From IMG/VR virus record IMGVR_UViG_2585427790_000004, positions 1 through 7,570 of that record: DNA of 7,570 nucleotides. The stretch is one strand, 5' to 3'. Every line of letters begins with the position of its first letter. Within the stretch, counting starts at the first letter, position 1. This stretch comes from a virus. Its lineage: Duplodnaviria > Heunggongvirae > Uroviricota > Caudoviricetes. Under the pieces are notes generated by a model that saw nothing but the letters and a program-made list of their open reading frames with translations, was not told the DNA's origin and did not search any database. Shown here piece by piece: positions 1-7,570 of this stretch. Position numbers and translations under genes: made by a program.

Positions 1-93
1 GCACTGGCGCTCGGGCGTCGTGCGATTGGCGTTGAACTGGAGACCGGACGTTTTGAGCAGACAGTCAGGGAAGTTCAGGATTTAATCGTTTGA
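1..93 (+). CDS. 3' end of an ORF entering from upstream (5' partial); C-terminus resembles a beta-class DNA N6-adenine/N4-cytosine methyltransferase
   Basis: Frame 1 is open from position 1 to TGA at 91-93 and translates to ALALGRRAIGVELETGRFEQTVREVQDLIV*. The A-x-x-G-R-R-x-I-G-x-E pattern resembles the segment after the FxGxG AdoMet motif near the C-terminus of beta-class methyltransferases. Only 30 residues are visible, so the family call is tentative. Confidence 0.4.
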   Translation, partial: ALALGRRAIGVELETGRFEQTVREVQDLIV

Positions 94-104
94 AACGGAT
101 GATA

Positions 105-133
105 TTGAAGAATTAATTACGCGTCGTTATTAT
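105..133 (+). promoter_or_regulatory. sigma70-like promoter for the tRNA cluster
   Basis: TTGAAG at 105-110, a 17-bp spacer, then TATTAT at 128-133; the first tRNA begins at 143, about 9 nt downstream. Confidence 0.5.
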
Positions 134-142
134 GCGGCTCCC

Positions 143-218
143 GGCCCTTTAGCTCAGTGGTGAGAGCGAGCGACTCATAATCGCCAGGTCGCTGGTTCAA
201 ATCCAGCAAGGGCCACCA
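143..218 (+). tRNA. ileZ: tRNA with CAU anticodon, most likely tRNA-Ile2 (lysidine type) rather than tRNA-Met
   Basis: Cloverleaf read by hand: acceptor GGCCCTT (143-149) pairs with AAGGGCC (208-214), discriminator A, encoded CCA at 216-218; D stem GCTC/GAGC; anticodon loop CTCATAA; T loop TTCAAAT. Closely resembles E. coli ileX as I recall it. The symbol follows the 933W naming from memory. Confidence 0.85.
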
Positions 219-225
219 TCACATA

Positions 226-302
226 CCGCCATTAGCTCATCAGGATAGAGCGCCAGCCTTCGAAGCTGGTTGCGCGGGGTTCGAGTCCTCGATGGCGGTC
301 CA
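226..302 (+). tRNA. argN: tRNA-Arg (anticodon UCG, reads CGA/CGG)
   Basis: Acceptor CCGCCAT (226-232) pairs with ATGGCGG (292-298), discriminator T, encoded CCA at 300-302; D stem GCTC/GAGC; anticodon stem CCAGC/GCTGG with loop CTTCGAA (anticodon TCG at 260-262); T loop TTCGAGT. Unusual C1:G72 first pair. Starts 7 nt after the previous tRNA. Confidence 0.8.
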
Positions 303-315
303 TTATCTGTACCCT

Positions 316-392
316 GCGTTGTTAGCTCAGCCGGACAGAGCAATTGCCTTCTAAGCAATCGGTCACTGGTTCGAATCCAGTACAACGCGCCA
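316..392 (+). tRNA. argO: tRNA-Arg (anticodon UCU, reads AGA/AGG)
   Basis: Acceptor GCGTTGT (316-322) pairs with ACAACGC (382-388), discriminator G, CCA at 390-392; anticodon stem ATTGC/GCAAT with loop CTTCTAA (anticodon TCT at 350-352); T loop TTCGAAT. Resembles E. coli argU. Confidence 0.88.
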
Positions 393-406
393 CACTTATT
401 TTCCCT

Positions 407-432
407 GGCTCGCTTTTGCGGGCCTTTTTTTT
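407..432 (+). terminator. rho-independent terminator after the tRNA cluster
   Basis: Stem GGCTCGC (407-413) / GCGGGCC (418-424) with one G-U pair, loop TTTT, followed by a run of 8 T (425-432). Confidence 0.7.
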
Positions 433-627
433 AAATGTCTCACAATTCAGACGGTTGACTGTTGTCTGGTTGGCGGGGAGTTTGTTAAAAGAAACTGGCA
501 TGGTGAATCCCCCTGTGCGGAGGGGCAATCAGCGAGTAGGTATATGGGATAATCGCGGATTCAGGTGCTGGTACTGAATTCACCGGGAGGCACCCGGCAC
601 CATGCAATGGCACATAGCGCCACTCTC

Positions 628-662
628 CAGCCCCTCTCCGGAGGGGCTGTTTATATTGATTT
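628..662 (+). terminator. rho-independent terminator-like hairpin
   Basis: Perfect 9-bp stem CAGCCCCTC (628-636) / GAGGGGCTG (641-649), loop TCCG, followed by the T-rich tract TTTATATTGATTTT. It lies just before the convergent end of the minus-strand ORF at 684. Confidence 0.5.
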
Positions 663-683
663 TGTCAGATGTGAGTAAACTGC

Positions 684-1019
684 TTATGGACTTTGTTGTT
701 TTAGCCCATAAGGACATATTTGCAGAGTGCAACGGTTATTAAAGCATTCATTCAATACGTTATCTGTATTTGTAGGGCATTCCTGGCTGTTTTTGATTAA
801 ATTCCAGAATGTTTTATTGAATGGTACTACGTTGTAAATGGTTACAGGTAGCACTTTGTTATTGAGCATGATGCCTGTGTGAGTCAGTGTAAATATACTT
901 TCAGGAGGTAAGAAAGCATCCGATTGATACCAGATTATTAATTTTATTTTACTCCATATGACTGAAAAAGATATTCCGCATGATGGCTGGATAACTGTAT
1001 CAATCACAATCCACTTCAT
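684..1019 (-). CDS. hypothetical 111-aa protein in an AT-rich island, no family recognised
   Basis: Open frame of 111 codons in very AT-rich DNA, where stop codons are frequent. Good Shine-Dalgarno AAGGAA 6 nt upstream of the ATG (complement of 1017-1019). A candidate sigma70 promoter lies upstream on the minus strand (TTTACA / TATACT, complement of about 1060-1086). The protein ([22 protein letters not shown]...) matches nothing I know. Confidence 0.4.
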
Positions 1020-1279
1020 TTAGTTTCCTTGTTTATGCCTTGCTGGTGATGTTCTGAAAAGTATAAATGATATTTTTGATTGTAAACCATAGAGCAGAAT
1101 TATTTTTCTGATGTTGTTTATTGTTTATTTAAATGCAGGGTGGTTTATATCTCGTCTTGTAGTTTATCCATGCATATCTGCTTGATGATGAGGTTTTTAT
1201 TTAAGGTATGGTTTTGTGTTTTTTCTGTATTACATGTCAGGTATTTTAAAGAATCATTTTTCAGATGGTGGAAAGAACC

Positions 1280-3136
1280 ATGGCATTTAAACACTATGAT
1301 GTTGTCAGGGCGGCGTCGCCGTCAGATCTTGCGGAAAAGCTGACACATAAACTGAAAGAGGGCTGGCAGCCGTTTGGTAGTCCGGTGGCCATAACCCCTT
1401 ATACCCTGATGCAGGCGATTGCAGCAGAAGGTGATGTGGTGGTCAGTGGTGCAACTGAGCCGGATTGGTACTACGTCATCGTACTGGCCGGGCAGTCCAA
1501 TGCCATGGCTTACGGTGAAGGGCTTCCGCTGCCGGATTCATACGATGCGCCCCATCCGCGCATTAAGCAACTGGCCCGTCGTAACACAGTGACTCCCGGT
1601 GGTGAAGTATGCGTATTTAACGACATCATTCCTGCTGACCATTGTCTGCATGATGTTCAGGATATGAGTACGATTAACCATCCCCGGGCTGACCTGAGCA
1701 AAGGGCAGTACGGCTGTGTCGGACAGGGCTTACATATTGCCAAAAAACTGCTTCCGTATATCCCGAATAACGCGGGGATCCTGCTGGTACCATGCTGTCG
1801 TGGTGGTTCGGCATTCACCCAGGGCGCGGAGGGGACATTCAGTGCGGACACGGGGGCCAGCCAGGATTCGGCACGCTGGGGTGTGGGTAAACCGTTATAT
1901 CAGGACCTGATCGCACGCACCAAAGCGGCATTACAGAAGAACCCGAAAAATGTGTTGCTGGCGGTGTGCTGGATGCAGGGCGAATTTGACATGAGCGCTG
2001 CCACCTACGCACAGCAACCGGACCTGTTCACGGCCATGCTGAAGCAGTTCCGTACTGACCTTTCCGGATTTAACGCGCAGTGCCATGGCGGCAGTGCTGC
2101 AGTTGTACCGTGGATTTGTGGCGACACGACGTATTACTGGAAAAACACATACGGCACACAGTATGACTCCGTCTACGGCGCGTACAAAAACAGGGAGAGC
2201 GACAACGTTTTCTTTGTGCCGTTCATGACCGACGGTAACGGCAACAACACGCCCACCAACTTACCGGCAGAAGACCCGGATATTGCTGATGCAGGTTATT
2301 ACGGCGCGCAATCCCGTAGTAATGGTAATTGGGTATCGTCAAATCGTCCGACACATTTCAGTTCATGGGCGCGCAGGGGCATTATTTCGGATCGCCTGGC
2401 AACCGCTATTCTGAACGCAGTTGGTCGAACCAGCGCCTTCATCAGCGGTACCGCACCGGAGATTAAACCCTCGCCCGGCGGCGACACGCCATCGGGGCCG
2501 TCTGATGGTGACACATCCGTTCGTACAGTCTCCCTGCTGCCGACAGCCGGAGAGGCTGCTGCGCAGGGCTGGACCATCACCGGCGGCAGTGTTGCGCTGG
2601 AAGATGGTGTGTTTAAGGTTACCAAGCAGAGCAATAAAACCTGGTCCCTGATGCATCCGGTGGATGACGCAGTCTCCCTGCTGACACGGGGTGGCAGACT
2701 GAGCTGTAAGTTTCGACTGTCAGGCGCACTGATCAACAACCAGTTCGGTCTGGGAATTTATCTGTATACCGATGTAGCGTTACCTGACGTCGTGGCGATG
2801 ACCGGGACTGGTAACCCGTTCCTGATGTCGTTCTTCACCCAGACCACAGACGGCAAACTGAATCTGATGCATCACAGGAAAGCAGGAAACACAAAGTTGG
2901 GCGAGTTCGGGAATTACAGTAACGACTGGCAGACGCTGGAGCTGGTGTTCACCGCCGGCAGTGCCACGGTTACTCCGAAACTGAATGGAGTGGCTGGCCC
3001 GGCATTCCAGGTCATAAAAGACAGTCTGACACTGGGGCTGAATGCGCTGACGCTGACGGATATTACCAAAAATGCAGCGTATGGCGTTGAGATAGAAAGT
3101 CTGGTGCTGGAGATAAATGCACCGGCATCATCATAA
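1280..3136 (+). CDS. nanS-p: prophage sialate 9-O-acetylesterase (NanS-p-like, SASA/DUF303 family)
   Basis: Long ORF (1265..3136 in the ORF track). Contains the GQSN block (VIVLAGQSNAMAYGEG) typical of SGNH-type sialate O-acetylesterases, and sits between the tRNAs and the holin as nanS-p does in Stx phages. Start placed at ATG 1280 (MAFKHYDVV...) because GGTGGAAAG precedes it; the in-frame ATG at 1265 has no Shine-Dalgarno. Confidence 0.85.
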   Translation: MAFKHYDVVRAASPSDLAEKLTHKLKEGWQPFGSPVAITPYTLMQAIAAEGDVVVSGATEPDWYYVIVLAGQSNAMAYGEGLPLPDSYDAPHPRIKQLARRNTVTPGGEVCVFNDIIPADHCLHDVQDMSTINHPRADLSKGQYGCVGQGLHIAKKLLPYIPNNAGILLVPCCRGGSAFTQGAEGTFSADTGASQDSARWGVGKPLYQDLIARTKAALQKNPKNVLLAVCWMQGEFDMSAATYAQQPDLFTAMLKQFRTDLSGFNAQCHGGSAAVVPWICGDTTYYWKNTYGTQYDSVYGAYKNRESDNVFFVPFMTDGNGNNTPTNLPAEDPDIADAGYYGAQSRSNGNWVSSNRPTHFSSWARRGIISDRLATAILNAVGRTSAFISGTAPEIKPSPGGDTPSGPSDGDTSVRTVSLLPTAGEAAAQGWTITGGSVALEDGVFKVTKQSNKTWSLMHPVDDAVSLLTRGGRLSCKFRLSGALINNQFGLGIYLYTDVALPDVVAMTGTGNPFLMSFFTQTTDGKLNLMHHRKAGNTKLGEFGNYSNDWQTLELVFTAGSATVTPKLNGVAGPAFQVIKDSLTLGLNALTLTDITKNAAYGVEIESLVLEINAPASS

Positions 3137-3220
3137 AAAGTGAGCCAGTCAAATGGAAGGTATCGTTAAACTCACCGGTAGTGTCAGTGGGTCGTCTGAG
3201 ATGCCTGCATGAGTTATCAG

Positions 3221-3252
3221 AGCCATCAGTACTTAACTGGTGGCTTTTTTTA
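3221..3252 (+). terminator. rho-independent terminator between nanS-p and the holin
   Basis: Stem AGCCATCAG (3221-3229) / CTGGTGGCT (3237-3245) with one G-U pair, loop TACTTAA, followed by six T and TAT. Confidence 0.6.
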
Positions 3253-3286
3253 TTGTTGTCAGCTTCCGGATAACGGGAGACGGGGT

Positions 3287-3502
3287 ATGTACCAGATGGA
3301 AAAAATCACAACAGGTGTGTCATACACCACGTCAGCGGTGGGAACGGGCTACTGGTTCCTGCAGTTGCTGGACAGGGTTTCCCCGTCTCAGTGGGCGGCA
3401 ATAGGCGTGCTGGGGAGTCTGCTGTTTGGGTTGCTGACATATCTGACTAACCTGTATTTCAAAATCAGAGAGGACCGTCGTAAGGCGGCGCGGGGAGAGT
3501 AA
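3287..3502 (+). CDS. S: class II holin (phage 21 S-like, 71 aa)
   Basis: [71 protein letters not shown]: two transmembrane segments and a charged C-terminus, near-identical in layout to the S21 holin as recalled. GGGAGA Shine-Dalgarno 6 nt upstream. Met1 and Met4 give a dual-start motif. The track ORF from 3209 is an unsupported N-terminal extension. Confidence 0.85.
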
Positions 3503-3506
3503 AGCG

Positions 3507-3851
3507 ATGAAGAAAAAATACGAACTGGTTGTTAAAGGGATAAATAATTACCCGAATAAGATTACTGTTACTGTGGCACTGGAAATTGGTGGGTATCCGT
3601 CACTGTTGTTGCCAGATGTGGCGATTAGTCTTGACCGTACTGAAGATGCCACGCTGGAGTTTTACGAAGCTGAGGCGAAAAAGCAGGCGAAGCAGTTTTT
3701 CATGGATGTTGCTGCCGGGTTATGTGAAGGGGATGGTCCGTTGCCGGAAAAGCGCCCCGTAATTTTAGAGGCGCAGGATGTGTTGATAACCTACAGAGGA
3801 AAACTACCGGGAATAATTACTGGTTCTCTGAAGACTCCACCGCTGGCCTGA
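3507..3851 (+). CDS. 114-aa protein of unknown function, probably DUF1327 (YdfR-like)
   Basis: Begins 5 nt after the holin stop and lies between holin and endolysin, the position of ydfR in the Qin prophage as I recall. The family assignment is from memory of similar proteins, not a search. Confidence 0.65.
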   Translation: MKKKYELVVKGINNYPNKITVTVALEIGGYPSLLLPDVAISLDRTEDATLEFYEAEAKKQAKQFFMDVAAGLCEGDGPLPEKRPVILEAQDVLITYRGKLPGIITGSLKTPPLA

Positions 3852-3901
3852 AGACTTAACATATCCAGGGATTTGAAATCGATAAACCCTGATAAATATC
3901 C

Positions 3902-4435
3902 ATGAACACCAAAATCAAATACGGCCTGTCGGCTGCCGTTCTGGCGCTGATTGCCGCAGGTGCGCCTGCGCCTGAAATCCTCGACCAGTTTCTGGATGAA
4001 AAGGAAGGTAACCACACCACGGCATACCGTGATGGCGCGGGTATCTGGACCATCTGCCGCGGTGCCATCCTGGTGGATGGCAAACCTGTCGTTCCGGGCA
4101 TGAAGTTGTCGAAGGAAAAATGCGACCGGGTTAACGCCATTGAGCGTGATAAGGCGCTGGCATGGGTGGAGAAAAACATCAGAGTGCCATTGAGTGAACC
4201 CCAGAAAGCGGGGATCGCGTCATTCTGTCCGTACAACATTGGCCCCGGTAAGTGTTTTCCGTCGACGTTTTATAAACGAATTAATGCAGGTGATCGCAGG
4301 GGAGCGTGTGAGGCGATTCGCTGGTGGATTAAGGACGGTGGCAGAGACTGCCGTATTCGCTCAAATAACTGTTACGGTCAGGTATCCCGTCGTGACCAGG
4401 AGAGCGCGCTGGCGTGCTGGGGAATCGACAGATAA
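3902..4435 (+). CDS. R: SAR endolysin (phage lysozyme, GH24 / T4-lysozyme fold)
   Basis: N-terminal Gly/Ala-rich weakly hydrophobic segment (MNTKIKYGLSAAVLALIAAGA) typical of signal-anchor-release endolysins, followed by the catalytic E-x8-D-x5-T spacing (EGNHTTAYRDGAGIWT). 177 aa. Confidence 0.9.
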   Translation: MNTKIKYGLSAAVLALIAAGAPAPEILDQFLDEKEGNHTTAYRDGAGIWTICRGAILVDGKPVVPGMKLSKEKCDRVNAIERDKALAWVEKNIRVPLSEPQKAGIASFCPYNIGPGKCFPSTFYKRINAGDRRGACEAIRWWIKDGGRDCRIRSNNCYGQVSRRDQESALACWGIDR

Positions 4436-4525
4436 GCAGAATATTTTGCTAATCAATGACGTTGGCCAAGGCGGACGGATAACACGAAATCCTGCGAACT
4501 GGCAAAATGTAAGTGAATAAAAGTA

Positions 4526-4558
4526 AAAACCCCGTTTGTTGGCTGCAAGCGGGGTTTT
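4526..4558. terminator. bidirectional terminator-like hairpin in the R-Rz gap
   Basis: 9-bp stem AAAACCCCG (4526-4534) / CGGGGTTTT (4550-4558) around a 15-nt loop; T-rich sequence follows on both strands. The large loop makes strength uncertain. Confidence 0.35.
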
Positions 4559-4633
4559 GTGTTTCCTGACTCTGGAAAAGTCAAAGGAGAAAGTGTGTTT
4601 GATTTTAGCAAACTGATTCGGGAGATTCGAGTG

Positions 4634-4732
4634 ATGGCTGGAAAATTATCCACCTGGAAGTTCATTCTTATCTGGCTGGTGTTTGTGATTATGGCCTCCG
4701 GTTATTTCATCGGTCAGATACGCTGGTGGTGA
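4634..4732 (+). CDS. possible 32-aa single-pass membrane peptide (alternative GTG start at 4595 gives 45 aa)
   Basis: Not in the ORF track because it is too short. ATG 4634 to TGA 4730-4732 encodes MAGKLSTWKFILIWLVFVIMASGYFIGQIRWW with a hydrophobic core. GGGAGA lies 8 nt upstream of the ATG, and AGGAG lies 5 nt upstream of the GTG at 4595. Its stop is 1 nt from the Rz start (TGAAATG). Confidence 0.35.
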   Translation: MAGKLSTWKFILIWLVFVIMASGYFIGQIRWW

Positions 4733-4733
4733 A

Positions 4734-5201
4734 ATGAACCGCGTACTGTGCGTGGTCATCATTGCCCTGCTGGTGGCCTGTGGTGCGCTTAGTCTGGGGC
4801 TGAATCATTACCGTGATAACGCCATAACCTACAAAGAGCAGCGCGATAAAAAAGTCAGTGAGCTGGAGCAGGCAAATGCAACCATTACTGATATGCAGCA
4901 GCGCCAGCGTGATGTTGCTGCACTTGATGCCAGATACTCGAGGGAATTAGCCGATGCGAGAGCTGAAAATGAAACTCTGCGCGCTGACGTTGCCGCTGGT
5001 CGTAAGCGCCTGCGGATCAACGCCACCTGCCCCGGTACCGTGCGTGAAGCCCCCACCACCTCCGGCGTGGATAATGCAACCGGCCCCCGACTGGCAGACA
5101 CCGCTGAACGGGATTATTTCACTCTCAGAGAGCGGTTGATGCTGACGCAGAAGCAGCTGGAAGTGGCGCAGGAATATATCCGCACTCAGTGCCTGAAATA
5201 A
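4734..5201 (+). CDS. Rz: Rz inner-membrane spanin (i-spanin)
   Basis: N-terminal transmembrane segment (MNRVLCVVIIALLVACGALSL) followed by a charged, coiled-coil-like periplasmic domain; position after the endolysin; 155 aa. Confidence 0.9.
   Translation: MNRVLCVVIIALLVACGALSLGLNHYRDNAITYKEQRDKKVSELEQANATITDMQQRQRDVAALDARYSRELADARAENETLRADVAAGRKRLRINATCPGTVREAPTTSGVDNATGPRLADTAERDYFTLRERLMLTQKQLEVAQEYIRTQCLK
4954..5139 (+). CDS. Rz1: Rz1 outer-membrane lipoprotein spanin (o-spanin), embedded in Rz in the +1 frame
   Basis: MRELKMKLCALTLPLVVSACGST...: lipobox LVVSAC and a proline-rich mature region (CVKPPPPPAWIMQPAPDWQTPLNGII) very like lambda Rz1 as recalled; wholly inside Rz. Confidence 0.85.
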   Translation: MRELKMKLCALTLPLVVSACGSTPPAPVPCVKPPPPPAWIMQPAPDWQTPLNGIISLSESG

Positions 5202-5229
5202 GTTTTGCTGATGCGCGGTATTGTCGCCG

Positions 5230-5294
5230 TATCCCCGCATTAACAGAGACCGCAGCCCGACCGGGAGACTCCTCTGCGCGAGTGTGCGGGGATA
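5230..5294. repeat. long imperfect palindrome at the Rz / tail-fibre junction
   Basis: TATCCCCGCA (5230-5239) is the exact reverse complement of TGCGGGGATA (5285-5294); inside are nested pairs CAGAG/CTCTG and CCCG/CGGG. No T-run follows. Confidence 0.5.
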
Positions 5295-5295
5295 A

Positions 5296-6742
5296 TCAAA
5301 AACGATACACACCGGGGTTTCTGCAGCAAAAACCTCTGAAACAAATGCAAAGACTTCAGCAGATAATGCTGCTTCCTCTAAGGCGGCAGCCGCATCGTCA
5401 GCCAGTTCAGCGGCGTCATCGGCATCATCTGCGTCTGCTTCAAAAGATGAGGCGACCAGACAAGCGTCAGCAGCGAAAGGTAGTGCCACGACAGCAACAA
5501 TGAAAGCATCAGAGGCAGCTGGTAGTGTGACGGCGGCAGCTCAGAGCAAAAGTACGGCGGAATCCGCGGCAACGCGCGCCGAGACAGCAGCAAAACGGGC
5601 AGAGGATATTGCATCCGCCGTGGCGCTGGAGGATGCGAGCACGACGAAAAAGGGGATAGTACAGCTCAGCAGTGCGACCAACAGCACTTCCGAGTCACTG
5701 GCGGCAACGCCAAAAGCGGTTAAGGCGGTAATGGGTGAAACGAACAAGAAAGCGCCCTTAAATAGTCCTGCACTGACCGGAACGCCAACAACACCAACTG
5801 CGCGACAGGGAACGAATAATACCCAAATCGCAAGCACGGCTTATGTTATGGCTGCGATCGCTGCCCTCGTGGACTCGTCGCCTGACGCACTGAATACGCT
5901 GAACGAGCTGGCTGCGGCGTTGGGCAACGACCCGAATTTTGCGACCACCATGACTAACGCGCTTGCGGGTAAGCAACCGAAAGATGCCACCCTGACGGCG
6001 CTGGCCGGGCTTGCTACTGCGGCAGACAGGTTTCCGTATTTTACGGGGAATGATGTTGCCAGTCTGGCAACCCTGACAAAAGTTGGGCGGGATATTCTTG
6101 CGAAATCGACCGTTGCCGCCGTTATCGAATACCTCGGTTTACGAGAACTCGGCACAAGCGGGGAGAAAATACCGTTACTCAGTACAGCGAATACCTGGAC
6201 TAATCGACAAACATTCAGCGGTGGCCTTTCTGGTGAACTATCCGGCAATGCTTCTACAGCTGCAAAATTAAAAACTGCCAGGAAAATAAGCAATGTGGCT
6301 TTTGATGGTTCCTCCGATATCACATTAAAAGCAAGTCATGTTGGTGCGTTTGCCTTAGGGAAAACAGGAAGCACCGTTGCGAATGATAAAGCAGTTGGAT
6401 GGAACTGGAGTAGCGGAGCCTATAACGCAACTATTAGTGGTGCATCAACGTTAATTATTCATTTTTATATGGGAGAAGGAAGTTGTCCTGCAGTTCAGTT
6501 TCGGATTAATTATAAAAATGGCGGTATTTTTTATCGTTCAGCCCGTGATGGTTATGGTTTTGAAGCCGACTGGTCCGAATTTTACACCACCACCAGAAAA
6601 CCTTCAGCAGGAGATGTTGGTGCACTGCCGTTATCTGGTGGTCAACTGAATGGTGCACTGGGTATCGGAACATCCAGTGCTCTTGGCGGTAATTCGATTG
6701 TATTGGGTGATAATGACACGGGCTTTAAACAAAATGGCGATG
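5296..6742 (+). pseudogene. side tail fibre (Stf-like) gene fragment, missing its 5' end and cut at its 3' end by the IS
   Basis: The frame of track ORF 5500..6903 is open back to the TAA at 5293-5295 with no start codon before 5500, and already encodes Ala/Ser-rich fibre repeats (ETNAKTSADNAASSKAAAASS...). It continues with GIVQLSSATNSTSESLAATPKAVKAV and ...LGDNDTGFKQNGD, typical of lambdoid Stf and T4 gp37-type fibres. After GD the frame runs into IS sequence at 6743. Confidence 0.8.
6122..6147. other. gix/hix-like DNA-invertase crossover site inside the tail-fibre gene
   Basis: TTATCGAATACC TC GGTTTACGAGAA: two 12-bp inverted half-sites around a 2-bp core; its reverse complement matches the Mu gixL site as I recall it (TTCCTGTAAACCGAGGTTTTGGATAA) at 22 of 26 positions, with the central AAACCGAGGTTT identical. 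Confidence 0.5.
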
Positions 6743-7570
6743 TGAACCGCCCCGGGTTTCCTGGAGAGTGTTTTATCTGTGAACTCAGGCTGCCAGATCA
6801 TCGTTTCCGATGGAAGCATAATAAGCTTTTTCTGCTTCTGCCGGAGGAGTATGGCCCAGCCTTTCCAGCAATCGTCGATTGTTATACCAGTCCACCCACG
6901 TGAGTGTGGCCAGTTCCACTTCTGCACGGTTTTTCCAGCTCTTACGGTGTATTACCTCCGCTTTGTAAAGACCATTGATGCTCTCCGCCATCGCGTTGTC
7001 ATACGAGTCGCCTGTACTTCCTGTTGATGCCAGTAATCCGGCTTCCTTAAGCCGCTGTGTGTAGGCCAGCGATACATACTGAGAACCTTTATCACTGTGA
7101 TGGACCGTGCCGGACGGTCGACGGGCCCATAACGCCTGCTCCAGTGCATCCAGCACGAATGTCGTTTCCATGGACGATGAGACCCGCCACCCCACGATGT
7201 ATCCGGCAAACACATCAATGATGAACGCCACATAGACGAAGCCCCGCCATGTGCTGACGTAAGTAAAATCAGCCACCCACAGCTGGTCAGGTCGTTCTGC
7301 CACGAACTGACGGTTTACGCGGTCGCCTGCGACAACGGCTTTCCGGCTGATGGTCGTACGGACCTTTTTACCCCGGAGAACACCGGCAAGTCCCATAACC
7401 GCCATGAGACGTGCCACAGTGCATCTGGCCACTCTGATACCTTCCCGTAACAACTGACGCCAGACTTTACGCACACCGTATACCTTGTGATTTTCATCGT
7501 ATACGCGCTGTATCTCTTTCTTCAGCCAGTCATCGCGCTGCGCACGGGCACTGCGTTTATCCGGATGATG
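6743..7570 (-). mobile_element. IS3-family insertion sequence (IS629-like), 3' part; continues beyond the window
   Basis: The tail-fibre frame breaks at 6743, where a terminus beginning TGAACCGCCCCGGG starts (IS3-family ends are 5'-TG...CA-3'). The transposase OrfB stop lies about 40 bp inside that end. Confidence 0.8.
6785..7570 (-). CDS. IS3-family transposase OrfB (DDE integrase domain), N-terminus beyond the window
   Basis: Track ORF 6785..7474 plus an open in-frame extension to 7570 (...HHPDKRSARAQRDDWLKKEIQRVYDENHKVYGV RKVWRQLL...). DDE-type blocks are present: LWVADFTY, HHSDKGSQY, YDNAMAESINGLYKAE. Matches IS629/IS1203-type OrfB from memory. Confidence 0.9.
   Translation of the reverse strand, partial: HHPDKRSARAQRDDWLKKEIQRVYDENHKVYGVRKVWRQLLREGIRVARCTVARLMAVMGLAGVLRGKKVRTTISRKAVVAGDRVNRQFVAERPDQLWVADFTYVSTWRGFVYVAFIIDVFAGYIVGWRVSSSMETTFVLDALEQALWARRPSGTVHHSDKGSQYVSLAYTQRLKEAGLLASTGSTGDSYDNAMAESINGLYKAEVIHRKSWKNRAEVELATLTWVDWYNNRRLLERLGHTPPAEAEKAYYASIGNDDLAA

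Follow-up and report, generated by a model that had tools for sequence, protein, structure and literature searches.

What is the 111-codon open reading frame that runs against the late genes of this lambdoid prophage, and should it be treated as something new? In the window (the whole stretch of 7,570 nucleotides analysed here) the frame exists just as the first-pass annotation had described it: it begins with ATG on the minus strand, within an AT-rich island where no other ORF exceeds 70 aa (32.4% GC at 650-1264, against 52.7% in the remainder of the window), and it opposes the tRNA, esterase, holin, lysozyme and Rz genes. That annotation regarded the product as an orphan of no recognisable family, possibly a lysogenic-conversion or phage-exclusion protein. 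Our answer is different. We conclude, with a probability of about 95%, that the ORF is iraL, a moron of lambdoid prophages whose product is an anti-adaptor of RssB that stabilises sigma-S. This gene is already known, its promoter, target and phenotype having been published along with it in 2014, and the structure of IraM bound to RssB followed in 2023. The features discussed below are collected in Table 1.

Table 1. Features of the iraL locus, in window coordinates.
Feature	Position	Strand	Basis and remarks
tRNA cluster Met(CAT), Arg(TCG), Arg(TCT)	143-392	+	ARAGORN, Rfam, RefSeq
STnc100/PasD-family prophage sRNA gene, convergent with iraL	469-658	+	Rfam RF02076, 133 bits (gathering score 47)
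GC-rich 9-bp hairpin	628-649		Intrinsic terminator of convergent STnc100 (+); terminator scan, Rfam, minus-strand fold
AT-rich iraL cassette (32.4% GC)	650-1264		Moron between sRNA terminator and esterase gene; composition, flank comparison
iraL CDS	684-1019	-	ATG start, 111 aa, RssB anti-adaptor, IraM/IraL/RssC family; ORF list and homology
5' UTR of 33 nt, TSS 1052	1020-1052	-	Match to published 5'-RACE
Shine-Dalgarno AAGGAA	1025-1030	-	5 nt before ATG, read from sequence; AAGGAAA in the diverged Stx2-phage paralogue
Sigma-70-type promoter	1060-1086	-	-10 TATACT 1060-1065, -35 TTTACA 1081-1086, 15-nt spacer; position relative to TSS
NanS-p-type sialate O-acetylesterase gene (DUF1737 + SASA + DUF6645)	1280-3136	+	Pfam; first late gene after the cassette

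The first-pass annotation had considered a frame of this length unlikely by chance in such AT-rich DNA. The length is indeed suggestive, but it does not decide the matter: when the island is shuffled with its dinucleotides preserved, 26 of 5000 shuffles contain an ORF of at least 111 codons in one or other of the six frames (p ~0.005). Since length alone is insufficient, it is homology and dN/dS that settle the coding question. In the comparison with K-12 iraM, dN/dS is 0.168 in the frame of the ORF, the two shifted frames giving 1.08 and 1.29, and in the comparison with the allele of phage 640R1 it is 0.167. A lack of coding constraint had been named in the first-pass annotation as an argument that would count against its own reading; what was found is a constraint specific to this frame. 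One could still imagine a chance ORF in AT-rich non-coding DNA, as the 0.5% of island shuffles that yield one of this size would allow, but such a reading is refuted by the dN/dS of 0.17 here against values above 1 in the other frames, by the maintenance of the family across Enterobacterales, and by a transcript and a phenotype that are already in print; we regard its probability as negligible.

The identity of the gene is not in doubt at the sequence level. The protein of the window is the same as IraL of the uropathogenic E. coli strain CFT073 (c1429, WP_000871291.1) at 111 of 111 residues, and the two coding sequences agree at 335 of 336 nucleotides, the single difference being synonymous. 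In the original description, the name iraL is given to genes whose full coding region is at least 95% identical and whose promoter region is conserved (Hryckowian 2014, PMC4045071). Besides the coding sequence, 133 of the 136 positions from -100 to the ATG are identical to CFT073 in the window, above the threshold of 96% that we applied to this region, and the mapped transcription start is present. Profile and structure databases agree with this assignment at the level of the family: NCBIfam NF007393, "anti-adapter protein IraM", scores 162 bits (cutoff 121; E 4.7e-48), aligning residues 1-110 of the protein with positions 1-113 of a profile of 114, and a sequence search of the PDB retrieves IraM (8TWD; E 9e-32), to which residues 1-78 are 65% identical. 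The same cassette bears the RefSeq label IraM in 1446 of 5426 complete E. coli genomes, and four phage records likewise annotate the cassette gene. The present analysis establishes the identity of the gene, the constraint on its coding sequence, the fold, the match of promoter and TSS, the prophage context and the distribution.

This identity refutes the idea of a novel orphan gene, unrelated to known families and devoted to lysogenic conversion, toxicity or phage exclusion, an idea that we now hold to be extremely improbable. It could draw on the antisense position in a prophage late region within an AT-rich island, and on two database results, since the sole match in PHROGs (phrog_4407, 244 bits) is labelled 'unknown function' and our Pfam scan was empty. 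The matches to IraM and IraL are, however, strong in family, structure and identity alike. Scans with Pfam-A returned nothing even at E <= 10 for either IraL or K-12 IraM, and homologues in protein databases bear a precomputed PF11183 label; the null is a limitation of the Pfam-A copy used and not evidence against membership of the family. Given this null and the PHROGs label, a pipeline relying on Pfam only or on PHROGs only would call the known gene iraL hypothetical. As for the role proposed earlier, the notion of lysogenic-conversion cargo stands in the broad sense of a prophage gene that alters host physiology. The more specific suggestion of a phage-exclusion function or a toxin finds no support: a search with the PADLOC-DB defence-protein HMMs matched 0 families (E <= 1), and what the protein is known to do is to bind a host adaptor, RssB, the published function being stabilisation of host sigma-S.

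The expression signals can be placed with some precision. The published 5'-RACE start of the CFT073 iraL mRNA, ACATCACCAGCAAGGCATAAACAAGGAAACCA (PMC4045071), matches CFT073 at 32 of 32 positions and the window at 31 of 32, and its first base corresponds to window position 1052 on the minus strand. This start lies 7 nt downstream of TATACT, which thus occupies -13 to -8, in agreement with the TTTACA / TATACT promoter that had been picked out in the first-pass annotation; the AAGGAA ribosome-binding site proposed there was right as well. Both promoter hexamers are identical between the window and CFT073. The 3 positions of 136 that differ between -100 and the ATG are 1080 (beside the -35 hexamer), 1053 (-1) and 1022 (in the 5' UTR), and, to judge from their location, these substitutions could alter the expression of iraL. 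Our consensus scan missed the true promoter because of its short spacer of 15 nt, the scan requiring 16-18 nt. The two sigma-70 sites that the scan did report, at 1127-1099 and 968-941 (-), disagree with the mapped start and were discarded.

The segment from -100 to the end of the coding sequence, i.e. iraL with 100 bp of native upstream sequence, suffices to raise sigma-S in K-12 (PMC4045071). A reported rise of IraL in a delta-fur background motivated a scan of positions 1000-1270 for a Fur box, in which the best site had 11 of 19 matches, a score reached in 969 of 1000 shuffles, so that a Fur box finds no support. By RNA-seq, iraL mRNA is 1.6 log2 higher after a shift to 37 C. At the other end of the gene, neither the terminator scan nor the fold of the minus strand gave iraL a canonical intrinsic terminator. 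Downstream of the gene there is one strong hairpin only, at 628-649, and on the iraL strand it lacks a U tract; as the terminator of STnc100 it lies 35 nt from the stop codon of iraL, and both genes converge on it. An iraL transcript left unterminated would run antisense into the STnc100 gene.

The surroundings of the gene are those of a lambdoid late region. The first tRNA (143-218, +) is called Met(CAT) by ARAGORN and tRNA-Ile in RefSeq (CFT073 and FDAARGOS_536); we take it to be of the ileZ type, with a CAT anticodon read as Ile after lysidine modification. The esterase gene is placed at 1280 following the RefSeq start in FDAARGOS_536 (MAFKHYDV...), the mechanical ORF 1265-3136 overshooting it. 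The holin lies in the mechanical ORF 3209-3502 (+), with an annotated length of 71 aa and a start at about 3287, and is followed by genes for a DUF1327 protein, a lysozyme and Rz/Rz1, the Rz1 lipoprotein ORF lying inside Rz at 4954-5139. Q, (methylase), tRNAs, (STnc100), minus-strand iraL, esterase, holin, lysozyme and Rz follow one another in this order in CFT073, in FDAARGOS_536, in the E. albertii type strain and in phage vB_EcoS-640R1. FDAARGOS_536 matches window positions 1-5320 at 98.9%, and the IraL of the E. albertii type strain is identical to that of the window.

Two variable slots can be recognised in this arrangement. The first, slot A, lies between the last tRNA-Arg gene and STnc100; it is empty in the window (about 393-436), holds stx2AB in an Stx2a phage, and contains about 640 bp with a DUF3927 ORF in CFT073. 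The second, slot B, is bounded by the STnc100 terminator and the esterase gene and is occupied by iraL in the window, while in the Stx2a phage no more than 232 bp separate its two flanks (window 436-648 and 1279-1387). The prophage itself is degraded: homology to the intact relative in FDAARGOS_536 ends at 5320, just past Rz, and is succeeded by an internal segment of a tail-fibre gene (5319-6742) and then by an IS3-family element from about 6743 (transposase 6785-7474, -). The junction of Rz, tail fibre and IS was found in one piece in no complete E. coli genome of our collection.

The comparison with CFT073 iraL (c1429, formerly YcgW) is the closest that can be made with a characterised gene. 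In both cases the gene sits in a lambdoid-prophage slot between a tRNA cluster and the esterase and lysis genes. There are eight nucleotide differences over 684-1264, including the three upstream of the ATG already mentioned. CFT073 has the extra 640 bp or so between the tRNAs and STnc100, and its esterase gene is truncated whereas that of the window is intact; conversely, the prophage of the window lacks all that would lie between Rz and the internal part of the tail-fibre gene.

The structure of the protein was predicted with AF2 from two alignments, of 15 sequences (the model used for comparison with the PDB) and of 30. The latter model has a mean pLDDT of 84, and about 90 over residues 1-80, with strands at 2-11, 16-22, 26-33, 42-45, 49-52 and 55-66 and a helix at 69-77. 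Residues 1-78 are thus predicted to form an antiparallel beta-barrel of the PmrD type, with a beta-hairpin and a single helix at the C-terminal end, to which a Cys-rich tail would be appended. The search of AlphaFold models with Foldseek, suggested in the first-pass annotation as a way to identify the protein, does so: the best match of the 15-sequence model is IraM (8twd_A, TM 0.90, rmsd 1.3 A).

The second match, the polymyxin-resistance connector protein PmrD of E. coli (4hn7, TM 0.73, E 9e-4), raises the question of whether the protein could be a connector of this kind, guarding a phosphorylated response regulator such as PmrA, and not act on RssB. The two proteins share an unusual barrel, both are small and bind the receiver domain of a response regulator, and IraM, like PmrD, raises the net phosphorylation of its partner (PMC10844676). 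Identity to PmrD is nevertheless 14%, against 65% to IraM, and PmrD lacks the Cys-rich tail and has PmrA, not RssB, as its partner. Moreover, the residues that touch RssB are conserved. Among the 15 residues of IraM that contact RssB (PMC10844676), 11 are identical in IraL (I4, I6, W22, K26, I42, C14, F18, W30, I61, Y62 and P66), three are replaced conservatively (T13S, L75I and I64V) and one differs (H63N). Finally, IraL binds RssB experimentally, in two-hybrid and pulldown assays (PMC4045071). We thus see practically no chance that a PmrD-like action is the right explanation, and return to IraL as an anti-adaptor of RssB.

Another question is whether the gene might be a functional equivalent of K-12 IraM, activated by PhoP and induced by Mg2+ starvation, and not the constitutive log-phase IraL. 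The name given by RefSeq/PGAP and NCBIfam, 'anti-adapter protein IraM', would favour this, as would the common fold and the large share of RssB-contact residues in common. K-12 IraM (b1160, PDB 8TWD, PMC10844676) belongs to the same family, with the same PmrD-like barrel and helix, a C-terminal tail with four cysteines and the same target. Identity to K-12 iraM is, however, 62% for the protein and 70.9% for the DNA, when IraM sensu stricto is recognised at 95% or more. DNA homology to K-12 is confined to the coding sequence (window 700-1021), and the iraL promoter is therefore unrelated to that of K-12 iraM; a PhoP box, (T/G)GTTTA-N5-(T/G)GTTTA, is absent from both strands at 601-1300. The K-12 gene also has another location, beside the e14 element, rather than in a slot of a late region. 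Mg2+ starvation induces IraM, which contacts both domains of RssB, whereas IraL is expressed in log phase and is reported on the N-terminal domain only, and it is by regulation and mode of RssB binding that IraL, with which our protein is identical, was set apart from IraM (PMC4045071). We consider equivalence to K-12 IraM very unlikely, and the assignment to iraL stands. The automatic name "IraM" masks the fact that the allele is IraL, with a different promoter and a different regulation.

What the protein does can be said with reference to CFT073. [quoted passage not shown] RssB binding and sigma-S stabilisation are thus taken from the literature on an identical protein, and by analogy should apply to that of the window. 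In the scenario that we propose, iraL would be transcribed from its own sigma-70 promoter (TSS 1052) against the phage late operon; with a promoter of its own opposing that operon, the gene could be expressed in a lysogen without Q-dependent late transcription. The copy in the degraded prophage of the window is, we infer, still expressed; the state of this prophage, the three substitutions noted above and the short spacer of the promoter weigh against the proposal. Its product would bind RssB, the adaptor of ClpXP, and block the delivery of sigma-S (RpoS) to the protease, so that sigma-S would be stabilised in exponential growth and the general stress regulon raised. IraM bridges both domains of RssB and occludes the 4-5-5 face that binds sigma-S (PMC10844676). 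The IraL of the window presumably occludes this face of the receiver domain in the same manner; details may differ, given that IraL is reported to bind the N-terminal domain only (PMC4045071).

Beyond E. coli, a profile search of 1.84 billion representative proteins gave 95 matches at E <= 1e-3, 48 of them at E <= 1e-10, the named members coming from Salmonella, Citrobacter, Enterobacter, Kosakonia, Intestinirhabdus, Dryocola and Pantoea. In Citrobacter sp. ANG330 a member 54% identical is chromosomal, located between purB and a histidine phosphatase gene on one side and lpxR-phoP-phoQ on the other, with no prophage genes nearby. This locus hints at a PhoPQ-linked chromosomal origin of the IraM family.

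In an alignment of 30 full-length members, with identities as low as 20-40%, eleven columns are taken by a single residue in 90% or more of the members: M1, W3, P12, W30, W72, C81, P82, C92, C97, C102 and P103. Six of these 11 fall within the 29-residue tail, C81, C97 and C102 being invariant in the 30 sequences and C92, P82 and P103 nearly so. The motif is CP-x9-C-x4-C-x4-CPYG, in residues 81-111 of IraL (window 684-779, -). In the structural work on IraM the tail was removed for crystallisation and called less conserved and flexible (PMC10844676). Neither this paper nor Battesti 2013 mentions zinc or the cysteines of the tail, and our search of the literature for IraM with zinc and cysteines gave no relevant paper. 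The pLDDT of the tail rises from about 35 with the 15-sequence alignment to about 60 with that of 30 sequences. Because the tail holds the most conserved residues of the family, it is reasonable to suppose, from conservation, that it may be a zinc-binding or redox-sensitive module.

A relative of iraL is also found beside a Shiga toxin operon. Stx2c- and Stx2a-converting phages of the 2851 type carry an IraM-family gene of 107 aa whose product is 74% identical to IraL (41 phage records, e.g. LC567829, where it is named 'iraM', and FM180578). As in the window, this gene is antisense in slot B, with an STnc100-like region on one side and the nanS-p esterase gene on the other, and its flanks are homologous to those of iraL (window 436-2413 aligns at 68.6%). 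It differs in its promoter, with TATAAT at -10 and a diverged -35, in an insertion in the UTR, and in its position immediately downstream of stx2B. In the library searched, no paper pairs 'iraM' with 'Stx2c'. With the paralogue directly downstream of stx2B, stabilisation of sigma-S could be a conversion trait inherited together with the toxin.

Only two leads, the Cys tail conserved in the family and the repeatedly used slot beside stx, reach past the literature searched. Taken jointly, they would mean that the tail is a zinc-binding or redox-sensitive module controlling the stability or activity of IraL and IraM, and that IraM-family genes are a regular antisense cargo of a fixed lambdoid slot beside stx, with sigma-S stabilisation co-inherited with Shiga toxin. 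We offer this double proposal tentatively and think it rather less probable than its failure in one part or the other.

For the rest, the ORF should no longer be listed as an orphan. IraL helps to explain the high exponential-phase level of RpoS in many pathogenic E. coli and Shigella, and the position of iraL means that this high-RpoS trait travels on lambdoid phages.
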